Part shown: in pieces, positions 24,561 through 27,500 of the stretch
Layout: every line of letters starts with the position of its first letter
Position numbering within the stretch: the stretch's first letter is position 1
Source of the DNA: Escherichia coli
Lineage (GTDB): Bacteria > Pseudomonadota > Gammaproteobacteria > Enterobacterales > Enterobacteriaceae
Strand: one strand, 5' to 3'
Length of the DNA stretch: 64,000 nucleotides
Assembly: GCF_041886205.1 (NCBI RefSeq)
Contig: NZ_CP169029.1
Program-made: the position numbers and the translations under genes
Notes under the pieces: generated by a model
Told to the model about the DNA's origin: nothing
The model's database searches: none
Seen by the model: the letters and a program-made list of their open reading frames with translations, nothing else

Positions 24561-27500
24561 TCAGAACGACCAGTTCACACCAGCCACCGCATTCCACGGG
24601 GATTCCACACCGGCACCATGGCTATACCCCATCCCGAGATGCCCGCTTAACGTACTGCTGAATGAGGCTTTAATACCTGCCTGGTATATTCCACGTCTGC
24701 CCGACAAATCATTGACAAAATTACCGTCACTATTCACTTTCACCCGATTATCATCGACAAATTCTTTGCGCAAAGCCGCCTTCAGCCAGGGTTCAATTTC
24801 TATACCGTTCCCCAGACGCATGTTGTAACTCAGCGTTGCGCCCAGTTCACGATATATACTGCGGGTATCGACTGATTTCGATTCCATGCCATTGGATAAA
24901 TGATATTCAGGGTTATCAGCGGTGAACCCCGTTAACGATGCATACGGCGTCAGGTTCCAGTTACCATCGGTAAATCGCATCCCGGTTTCAATGTGACCAC
25001 CCAGCCCGTTGCTGCGATAACTGCCGTTGGCGGCTCCACCGCTGCTCATTTTACCGGCTACGTTACTTTCAAAACGGTTCAGCTTCACGACACCGTCCAG
25101 ATAGAAACCACTTTCATGTTCCCAACTGGCATAGCCGCCCAGAGAATAACTGCCCACACAGCCATGTCCTCCGCGATCAAAACCGATATGTGAATGGGAA
25201 TAACCCATAAAAGCGCCCAGCGTGGCAATTCCTTCAGGAATATCATTACGGCTGTCGATCCCCACGGTCATTCCGGTCAGCGTCTGCTCAAACCCGGCAC
25301 CCGCATCGGTGGTGACATTATTACGGGTGTTATACGTCGCCCCCCAGACATTATTGTTGTGTGGACTCGCTTTCATTATGTTCAACCGCTCGCGAATACT
25401 GTTTAGCTCAGCATCAAATACCAACGGTAATGTTGCAGCCATATTGAGTACGGCTGCCGTAGAAGGCGTGATGCGTTTCTCCGGAACGGGTGTCGGCGTT
25501 GGATCGGGAGTCGGGTCTGGATTTGGGTTTGGGTTCGGGTTTGGGTTTGGGTTTGGGTTCGGGTTTGGGTTTGGGTTTGGGTTTGGGTTCGGGTTTGGGT
25601 TCGGGTTCGGGTTCGGGTTCGGGTTCGGATTTGGGTTCGGATTTGGGTTCGGATTTGGGTTTGGGTTTGGGTTTGGGTTTGGGTTTGGGTTGACATTATT
25701 GGTCAGGTTCCAGTTACTGTTACCGTCACTTTTCAGGACATACTCATAGGTCCCAAGATCAACGAAACCGCCAGTATTGCCCAGCGTAAACGAAGCATCC
25801 CCTCCCCCTGTTTTCACCAGCGTCATCGCGTCGTCAGACTGAGGGCTGACGCCGGTATCCTGAACAAAGATTTTAAAATTACCAGTGGCGTTGTTGTTGA
25901 CGACCAGTTGATCGCCCCGGGAGCCTGCAACGTTGGTATGCAGGTAGAAGTTACCGCTGCCGGAAAGTTCATTGGTTGTCAGAGTGTTGTAGATACCGTT
26001 AGTTGTGGCAGGCGCTGATAAATAAACATCACCGTCGTTGAGTAGCAAACTGTTTACTCTATATTCGCAGTTGCTGGTACCTGCACAGGAATTATTGCTG
26101 TTAAGCCAGACACTGCCCCGGCTGGCAGCCGTCAGGTCGGCAAGCGTCGTATCGACGCCATTTCCGATAGTTAATGTCGCGCTATCGGTAATCCGGACCG
26201 CCCCTTCAAGTTTAACTGGCGTAACATTATCCCGTGGCGTCATTAACGACAGGCTTCCTGTCGCGCCACTGACCGATGCATCCGCCAGCGTACCTGCGTA
26301 GACGATTGCCGTCCCGTCAGTGACCTGGAGATCTTCTGCCCGGGCCAGAGCCTGAAACTCATCTTTTGACCGCCCAAGGGTATATTGCCCGCCAGAGTTA
26401 ACCTTTGTGGCGGAGTCCTGACCCAGGTTTTGCATTGCACCACCCTTGCCAACCGTGGAGTCACGGGCTTCGGTACCTGCTAATACCAATAAATTACCGC
26501 CATTTTCCAGCAACACATTGGTCGCTAAATTGCCGGCAATGGAAAAGGTACCGTACTGGTGAGTACCGCTGATTTCAATACCGTTAGCCGTGCTCGTCTG
26601 GAGAGCGGCACCGCTGTTCTGGACGATATCTGTCGCTTTGCCATTATCGTTGACTGTCAGCGTACCGCCTTCATTGATCGTTGTTTTTATTGCCTCACCG
26701 TTAGCCGAAACTGTTTGTATTCCGCCGTCGTTAATCGTTGTCTCATTCGCCACACCCTCGACGATTTGTTCGCCACCAGTGAGCGCCGAGCCTGTCGCAG
26801 TGGCTTTTGTTTTGACGATCTCCCGTCCGCCCGTATTGACCTGTGTTTTGGCGGAAGTGGTGTCTGACTCCACGGTTAACACGCCGCCATTTGCCAGCAG
26901 GATATTGTTCGCCGCACCCTGCTCGATGCTGAACGCGACGCCATCAGCGCGTGTCCCTGTGACCCGCGTCGCCCTGGTGGTTGCAACCAACGCGCCCTGA
27001 CTACTCTGCTGTATCCCCGTTGCGCTGCCTTTCTCCCGCACATCGAGTGTGCCGCCATTGTTAAGTCTGGTGGTATATGCTACGGCCTCCTCGTGGACAA
27101 TCATCTTACCGCCAGCATCAACGATGGTATCTACCGCCGAGGTTTGAGCTACAACCGTCAGTTCGCCGGTATTTTCCAGCACAACATGCTCAGCCCTGCC
27201 TCCGGTAATAGTGAAGTGAGAGGACCTCTGGTATCCGTCAATATCAGTCCCCGCGCCCGTGTTGGCAACTAAAGCGCTCCCCGTGTCCAGGTAAACCCCA
27301 TGTGCGATACCGCCGGTATCGACAATCAGCGTGCCTCCGGCGCGAATATTGCTGCCAGTTGCCGTACCTCCTTTCTCAACAACCTGCTTGCTCCCGGAAG
27401 CGATATTTGTTGTGTCAGCTTTCCCGCCGCTCTTGATATTTTGCGTGCCACTGTTGATATTTGTTCCCGTAGCAATACCATGATTATAAATATTCTGTGT

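Follow-up and report, generated by a model that had tools for sequence, protein, structure and literature searches.

In-frame copy-number variation of a coding hexanucleotide array and the probable Asn-Pro spacer that it encodes in an AIDA-I-type autotransporter of Escherichia coli

Introduction

What is a long run of GGGTTT hexamers doing inside an autotransporter gene of Escherichia coli? The array lies in a 64-kb stretch of the chromosome (contig NZ_CP169029.1; "the window" below means this whole stretch of 64,000 nucleotides), within a minus-strand coding sequence (CDS) for an AIDA-I-type autotransporter of 1138 residues (24561–27977, minus strand, stop codon included). A first-pass annotation made from the letters alone had described the array as telomere-like, as the template of an Asn-Pro linker whose length could change by slippage, and as a G-quadruplex (G4) motif that could affect transcription or replication through the locus. 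Here we examine the repeat, the protein it encodes and its alleles in other strains. The array is probably best understood as a slippage-prone coding hexamer of the variable number of tandem repeats (VNTR) type, encoding a length-variable X-Pro spacer that leads from the passenger to the pore helix, with a G4 potential that is incidental.

The array and the peptide it encodes

Tandem Repeats Finder places a period-6 array on the plus strand at 25513–25691 (29.8 copies, 87% matches, 0 indels, score 253, consensus GGGTTT), that is, units copied head to tail as in a VNTR or microsatellite. The 64-kb window holds two tandem-repeat regions, and the hexamer array scores far above the other one (5939–6010). 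Its location had been given correctly in the first-pass annotation and its size overestimated: instead of about 34 units and about 36 Asn-Pro pairs, the reading frame on the minus strand contains 29 AAYCCR units (25518–25691, minus strand), which are translated as (Asn-Pro)29, residues 763–820, and form the part that is polymorphic between strains. These units comprise 18 AACCCA, 7 AACCCG, 3 AATCCG and 1 AATCCA, and every unit variant, in the window and in the other alleles, is synonymous for Asn-Pro. CCA accounts for 19 of the 29 Pro codons, as would be expected if a single unit had been amplified, and amplification of one unit explains the predominance of AACCCA.

C-terminal to (NP)29 stands a degenerate tail of six X-Pro pairs, DPTPDPTPTPVP (25482–25517, minus strand), delimited by translation and allele comparison and identical to the tail quoted in the earlier annotation. 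At the DNA level this tail is non-repetitive, and it is kept both in the window gene and in its paralog ypjA, discussed below. Altogether there are 35 X-Pro dipeptides (29 NP and 6 in the tail), giving a spacer of 70 residues (763–832).

The likeness to telomeric repeats is one of resemblance only. Telomeric repeats mark the end of a linear replicon, whereas this array sits within a CDS on the chromosome, in a stretch bounded by conserved housekeeping genes (minCDE, icd and phoPQ). Some predictions that overlap the tract can also be set aside. An antisense open reading frame (ORF) of 175 residues that spans it on the plus strand (25222–25749) is a spurious by-product of the repeat and no gene, and the terminator-like hits that it draws (29 in the tract, where 4 would be expected; about 24 at 25511–25669) are an artefact of a scan that permits G-T pairs in a GGGTTY repeat. 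Rfam returned no RNA family at or near the tract.

Position of the tract within the autotransporter

The CDS begins at the ATG of MNRISRYYF, the start codon that the NCBI Prokaryotic Genome Annotation Pipeline (PGAP) also uses in near-identical genes. Pfam finds AIDA repeats (PF16168) in six matched stretches of the passenger (E = 1e-85), followed by a pertactin-type C-terminal passenger domain, the junction or autochaperone region (PF03212, E = 6e-47; residues 641–759, 25701–26057, minus strand), which is modelled as a beta-helix, and by the autotransporter beta-barrel domain (PF03797, E = 5.6e-45; residues 877–1115, 24633–25349, minus strand). The earlier identification of the gene as an autotransporter is borne out by all three matches.

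Residues 600–1138 were modelled with AlphaFold from an alignment of 20 sequences (mean predicted local distance difference test score, pLDDT, of 81). In the local numbering of the model, residues up to 160 form the beta-helix, residues 166–232, which correspond to the tract, are coil with pLDDT below 50, an alpha-helix follows at 239–269 with pLDDT 74–92, and the barrel occupies 277–538 with roughly 12 main strands, as counted from DSSP elements. In the full protein the predicted helix covers residues 838–868 (25374–25466, minus strand); it begins six residues past the tract, and its RITPSTAAV motif is kept in homologs. From the model, this helix is expected to be the linker helix in the barrel pore. 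At the other end, the pertactin domain stops three residues ahead of the tract, and Pfam and AlphaFold together place the X-Pro tract precisely where the beta-helical passenger gives way to the helix that precedes the barrel.

A PF03797 barrel, a passenger of AIDA-repeat and pertactin type and a predicted helix before the barrel are the features of classical (type Va) AIDA-I-type autotransporters, and all of them are present. The domain assignments place the gene product in this class, as a putative surface adhesin.

Proline-rich inserts at the same site in homologs

Twenty homologs were aligned and compared over the segment between the conserved W-x-L at the passenger end and the ITPSTAAV at the helix start. 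This segment is hypervariable, with 0 to approximately 95 extra residues. YejO has no insert at the site, relatives from Salmonella and [Enterobacter] lignolyticus carry about 20–28 extra residues, E. albertii has NPDPKPDPDPKP-type tracts, and an Erwinia protein has the longest insert, with about 95 extra residues. The inserts are Pro-rich and differ in composition (DP/KP, EP, PV and others), and they recur at the spacer site, as independent sequences, in relatives from Escherichia, Citrobacter, Salmonella, Klebsiella and Erwinia. Site and proline content are recurrent; the sequence is not.

A large protein search was dominated by YejO-type relatives and partial proteins, without full-length (NP)n proteins, and was used for the linker comparison only. 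Several database entries of the family (P0001, P0007, P0008, P0013) are labelled "partial" and start or end at contig edges; cluster P0007, with 2224 member sequences, starts 14 residues past the tract. The repeat is of a type at which short-read assemblies may break, and such breaks near the repeat are one possible cause of the partial entries.

Copy number differs between strains in whole units

Twenty-four alleles were taken from complete genomes, 14 of which, including that of the window, have a pure (NP)n tract. These 14, all at the locus of the K-12 pseudogene ycgI (see below), have n = 20, 22, 22, 22, 23, 24, 26, 27, 27, 29, 29, 31, 32 and 37, every one of them in frame. The window and the other 13 alleles of this kind each have an uninterrupted 1138-residue-type ORF, and a separate, frameshifted record described below is the sole exception. 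The 60 best-matching genomes fall into 13 length classes. In 12 of these the difference from the query is an exact multiple of 6 bp, and the thirteenth is the frameshifted record; multiples of 6 bp hold in 59 of the 60. It had been proposed that the units are in frame and that slippage would therefore alter linker length without inactivating the gene, and the 14 alleles, spaced by multiples of 6 bp from n = 20 to n = 37, agree with this.

Whole-unit differences between near-identical haplotypes, which set a VNTR apart, are found in three haplotypes, each with identical 400-bp flanks. The window-type haplotype has 27, 29, 31, 32 and 37 units in five strains, a second has n = 20, 22, 22, 22 and 23, and a third has n = 26, 27 and 29. 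The comparison of repeat number between strains that was suggested as a check at the outset has therefore been made, and the number is not invariant, even where the flanks are identical. When alleles are compared unit by unit, the differences sit in runs of identical hexamers (for example, a6 vs a9 vs a12, or g4 vs g5, in run length) or in a 12-bp AATCCG-AACCCA pair. Steps of 6 and 12 bp inside homogeneous runs of units are what slipped-strand mispairing would leave, and the pattern points to slippage as the way in which the tract changes length.

Equal length does not always mean equal descent: the 29 units of strain 50579417, as many as in the window, come in a quite different order, a case of length homoplasy. 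(NP)22 is common to 32 of the 60 best-matching records, and pairs of strains from the same study (DETEC-P649/P666, Z142-2/-7 and CFSAN061763/68) are equal in length. Over clonal time scales, the tract is not hypermutable.

A long, mutable repeat in the gene of a surface protein invites two further explanations, namely an on/off contingency repeat for phase variation or a variable, immunodominant decoy epitope for escape from antibodies. The NANP repeat of the Plasmodium circumsporozoite protein is an immunodominant repeat antigen, and an Asn-Pro repeat recalls it. Slippage by a 6-bp unit inside an ORF cannot switch the gene off, and the intact alleles are all in frame; on/off phase variation, which works through the reading frame or through promoter spacing, is thereby ruled out. 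As for a decoy, the sequence of the peptide is constant, and length alone varies. Taken together, this pair of explanations is barely credible.

The frameshifted record (L015; NZ_CP037903.1, strain LHM10-1) has extra A's (AAACCG, AAAAACCCG, CCAAAAACCC) that shift the frame twice within the repeat, and its gene is annotated as a frameshifted pseudogene. This may be an assembly or sequencing error or a real inactivation; the extra A's fall in A-runs, where an error of sequencing is just as good an explanation.

The gene is the intact form of ycgI and a paralog of ypjA

In RefSeq, PGAP labels the close relatives of the gene "adhesin-like autotransporter YpjA/EhaD". In the window and in near-identical genomes, its neighbours are ymgD-ymgG-ymgI-ymgJ on one side and minE-minD-minC on the other, and the same site in K-12 holds only the 344-bp pseudogene ycgI (NC_000913.3, 1223564–1223907). 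True ypjA lies at 2.78 Mb in K-12, beside genes of the CP4-57 prophage (ypjF, yfjZ). Synteny, with a ymgJ-minE site rather than a CP4-57 neighbourhood, rules out orthology with ypjA: the window gene is the intact form of the K-12 pseudogene ycgI and a paralog of ypjA/EhaD. The name given to it by the NCBI pipeline is thus an annotation trap, which we correct here. Since ypjA also has its own ymgJ-like copy upstream, the two loci look like a segmental duplication whose products have been conflated by automatic naming.

The paralogs share their architecture, the DPTPDPTPTPVP tail, the RITPSTAAV helix start and the upstream ymgJ-like copy, and the regions flanking the linker are about 96–98% identical at the DNA level (314–328 of 330 bases on each side). 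They differ in the passenger, which is 388 residues shorter in the window protein than in YpjA (1138 vs 1526 residues for the whole proteins), and in the linker, which in YpjA (of K-12, O157:H7 and others) is a mixture of KP, DP and NP amounting to 18–20 dipeptides and varying only slightly in length. YpjA has been reported to be associated with biofilm formation (PMC9289746); on the protein of the ycgI locus, our literature searches turned up no more than a brief remark in a review.

One allele at the ycgI locus (L014; NZ_CP073939.1, strain MB53) combines window-like flanks (325 of 330 bases) with a ypjA-like mixed linker, KPNPDP(NP)6(KPDP)4. The mixed form may be ancestral at both loci, this allele may be an ancestral intermediate, or gene conversion between the paralogs may have produced it; the flanks of the two loci are too alike for a decision between an ancestral form and paralog exchange.

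Of the 5426 complete E. coli genomes in which the distribution of the gene was surveyed, 2470 cover 80% or more of the window gene. A locus-specific query of 1.74 kb, read through evenly spaced sampled rows and by coverage class only, because additional intergenic indels prevent its match spans from being converted into repeat numbers, gives as rough figures that approximately 8% retain the tract-bearing gene at the minE locus and that about half have only the last 345 bp left, a 3′ remnant as in K-12.

A length-variable stalk or a tolerated microsatellite

The explanation that we favour, a spacer of variable length, starts from what the tract is seen to be: its anatomy and position, the fact that no structure is predicted for it, the Pro-rich inserts that recur at the site, and an in-frame copy-number polymorphism with the signature of slippage. 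AAC-CCA repeats and their synonymous variants encode a strictly alternating Asn-Pro peptide and, with the DPTPDPTPTPVP tail, the 70-residue X-Pro spacer. By analogy with the X-Pro repeats of TonB and procyclin, such a tract may adopt a polyproline-II conformation and act as an extended, non-globular stalk, in which case its length would set the distance of the adhesin passenger from the outer membrane. With a polyproline-II-like chain rising about 0.31 nm per residue, lengths of approximately 16, 22 and 27 nm are estimated for stalks of n = 20, 29 and 37. Replication slippage in units of 6 or 12 bp within homogeneous runs would let this length drift or be selected, and the G3N3 periodicity of the opposite strand would follow from the AAC and CCN codons. 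If linker length does set projection over these 16–27 nm (n = 20–37), E. coli would have a simple in-frame way of tuning the reach of an adhesin, which could then match the thickness of the cell's own O-antigen or capsule layer.

Several points weigh against this explanation. The locus looks dispensable: about 8% of the 5426 genomes keep the gene, about half have the 3′ remnant, and the neighbouring autotransporter gene ycgH is frameshifted in the window, so the length variation could be neutral. The relative YejO, having no spacer, indicates that a spacer is not required for secretion in the family. The polyproline-II form is an assumption by analogy; AlphaFold gives the tract low confidence only.

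The same observations make neutral drift the main rival: a tolerated hexamer in a disordered linker, expanded by slippage and of a length without phenotype, in a decaying gene that most E. coli have lost and that is itself heading for loss. Most genomes have indeed lost the gene or keep its remnant, ycgH beside it is a pseudogene here, record L015 with its frame-shifting A insertions is annotated as a pseudogene, YejO does without a spacer, size homoplasy occurs, and the many length classes have no obvious optimum. On the other hand, the 1138-residue ORF is unbroken in all 14 pure-tract alleles, the separate record L015 being the one exception, and all unit variants are synonymous for Asn-Pro; moreover, the recurrence of independent Pro-rich inserts at this exact site in five genera argues that the site is used. 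Weighing both sides, we consider neutral drift unlikely, and regard the length-variable spacer as the better account.

G-quadruplex potential of the template strand

With the gene encoded on the minus strand, transcription uses the G-rich plus strand as its template, as had been stated in the first-pass annotation. This strand also serves as the leading-strand template, an assignment that follows from the GC skew of the window (-0.023) and from the position of K-12 ycgI on the plus strand at 1.2236 Mb, in the right replichore. Between 25482 and 25691 there are 28 GGG runs. A search for four G3+ runs with loops of 1–7 nucleotides gives 17 overlapping matches on the plus strand, at most five non-overlapping four-run units, and the mean G4Hunter score is 1.33, above the threshold of about 1.2; by sequence, this is a G4-forming motif. 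The resulting G-run array (25525–25689, plus strand) consists of two blocks, 25525–25623 and 25657–25689, with GGATTT units between them, and no canonical G4 match exists elsewhere in the 64 kb on either strand. Neither hairpin nor cruciform is predicted for the tract, the DNA folding energies of -0.8 and -0.4 kcal/mol being no better than those of shuffles (z = 0.1 for -0.8), which rules these structures out.

A functional role would mean that (GGGTTY)n folds in vivo and impedes RNA polymerase or DNA polymerase III, thereby throttling expression of the adhesin or driving instability of the repeat. The motif counts, their uniqueness in the window, the lack of a competing hairpin and the position of the G-rich strand as leading-strand template are all compatible with such a role, and a G3T3 model oligonucleotide does fold, with a melting temperature of 71 °C and -4.7 kcal/mol at 25 °C in 100 mM KCl (PMC2490738). 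The window array resembles this model in its G3 tracts and three-base pyrimidine loops. The model, however, is an isolated single strand, whereas the array is duplex chromosomal DNA with TTC loops and GGATTT interruptions. The G3T3 duplex is predicted at -30.4 kcal/mol, making it about 25 kcal/mol more stable than the quadruplex, and addition of the complementary strand turns much of the quadruplex into duplex (PMC2490738). During transcription the template strand is paired with RNA, and a G-rich strand that is both transcribed and the leading-strand template would be less exposed as a single strand than its complement.

Among the alleles, all of which encode (NP)n, there are between 0 and 23 canonical matches, AAC codons make up a fraction of 0.38 to 0.89, and one (NP)24 allele (L010) has 0 matches; the peptide is conserved and the G4 motif is not. 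Furthermore, runs of AATCCA, which contain no GGG, expand to 6–8 copies in other alleles, so expansion has no need of G-runs. The G3N3 periodicity itself comes from AAC (Asn) standing before CCN (Pro), which gives CCC. On these sequence grounds, the G4 potential is most likely a by-product of the codons rather than a selected feature, and a functional G4 array seems improbable.

Of what was proposed in the first-pass annotation, the motif and its G3-N3 periodicity therefore stand in silico, whereas we find no evidence here of an effect on transcription or replication, and our searches found no literature linking ypjA with quadruplexes. Failure to form G4 in vitro had been named as a refuting result; given the folding of G3T3, that outcome is unlikely, but this says little about the chromosome. 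The stronger version, in which a G4-prone coding array, with its G-rich strand both leading-strand template and transcribed, would be hypermutable because of its structure and would also lower adhesin expression, is harder still to credit. Were a G4-driven process at work, AAC-rich alleles (window type, n up to 37) would be both the most G4-capable and the most length-variable.

Other features of the window

The neighbouring autotransporter gene ycgH (29324–31442, minus strand) is split into overlapping ORFs of 498 and 226 residues, the first of which has AC_1, Pertactin and beta-domain matches. The region measures only 2.1 kb here, against 2664 bp for intact ycgH elsewhere, and is frameshifted by annotation in the near-identical strain 6EVA.

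An IS3-family insertion sequence lies at 6588–7801 on the plus strand (orfA 6588–6914; orfB 6911–7801, with an rve integrase core domain), with a match to the Rfam ALIL frameshift pseudoknot inside it at 6869–6985. The element appears to interrupt a hypothetical gene (ORFs 5614–6582 and 7659–8363) that is a single 1437-bp CDS in strain 6EVA. The second tandem repeat of the window (5939–6010) is weak, with a period of 12 or 36 and an A-rich unit, TGCAAAAAAACC; it lies in ORF 5614–6582, just upstream of the insertion sequence. Finally, the small RNA C0299 of Rfam has a full-length match at 17774–17852 on the minus strand (109 bits).

Comparison with known systems

Searches on ypjA, ycgI and EhaD, combined with repeat, quadruplex, autotransporter or biofilm, found no description of the repeat. 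Its separate elements are already known: a Pro-rich domain at the site (TibA), in-frame repeat polymorphism in an autotransporter (pertactin) and six-base VNTRs in E. coli (GECM-10).

Strictly alternating X-Pro peptides occur in TonB, as (EP)n(KP)n, and in trypanosome procyclin, as (EP)n, where these rods are regarded as extended, rigid spacers. What the Asn-Pro tract shares with them is composition, not homology: they are other proteins in other compartments, and the tract has Asn in place of charged residues. The Pfam procyclin model gives the window protein a weak, sub-threshold score of 21 bits against a cut-off of 100.

Pertactin of Bordetella has polymorphic, Pro-containing repeats, (GGXXP)n and (PQP)n. 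It resembles the window protein as an autotransporter with short in-frame repeats of strain-variable copy number; its repeats are part of the passenger, however, as loops in or near the beta-helix that are tied to antigenic drift, whereas the window repeat is the spacer between the passenger and the barrel helix.

A likeness in position is offered by TibA of E. coli, an AIDA-type autotransporter with a proline-rich domain (residues 627–677) between the junction region and the membrane domain (PMC3835316). This segment is Pro-rich and non-globular and stands where the NP tract stands. It differs in that the paper describing it (PMC3835316) gives no VNTR, while the NP tract is a near-perfect dipeptide repeat encoded by a 6-bp array of polymorphic copy number.

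At the DNA level, the nearest counterparts are the six-base VNTRs CVN014, CVN015, CVN016 and CVN017 of the GECM-10 scheme for multilocus VNTR analysis (MLVA) (PMC3877011, PMC8143711). Like them, the array is a hexamer tandem repeat whose copy number varies between E. coli strains. None of the 20 GECM-10 primers for the 10 loci (primers from PMC8143711) matches the window with up to three mismatches allowed, which rules out a known generic E. coli MLVA locus; the tract, not being flanked by these primers, is a separate locus. In practical terms, it offers a hexamer VNTR that had not been used before and that lies outside the ten GECM-10 loci, and it separates strains with identical flanks.

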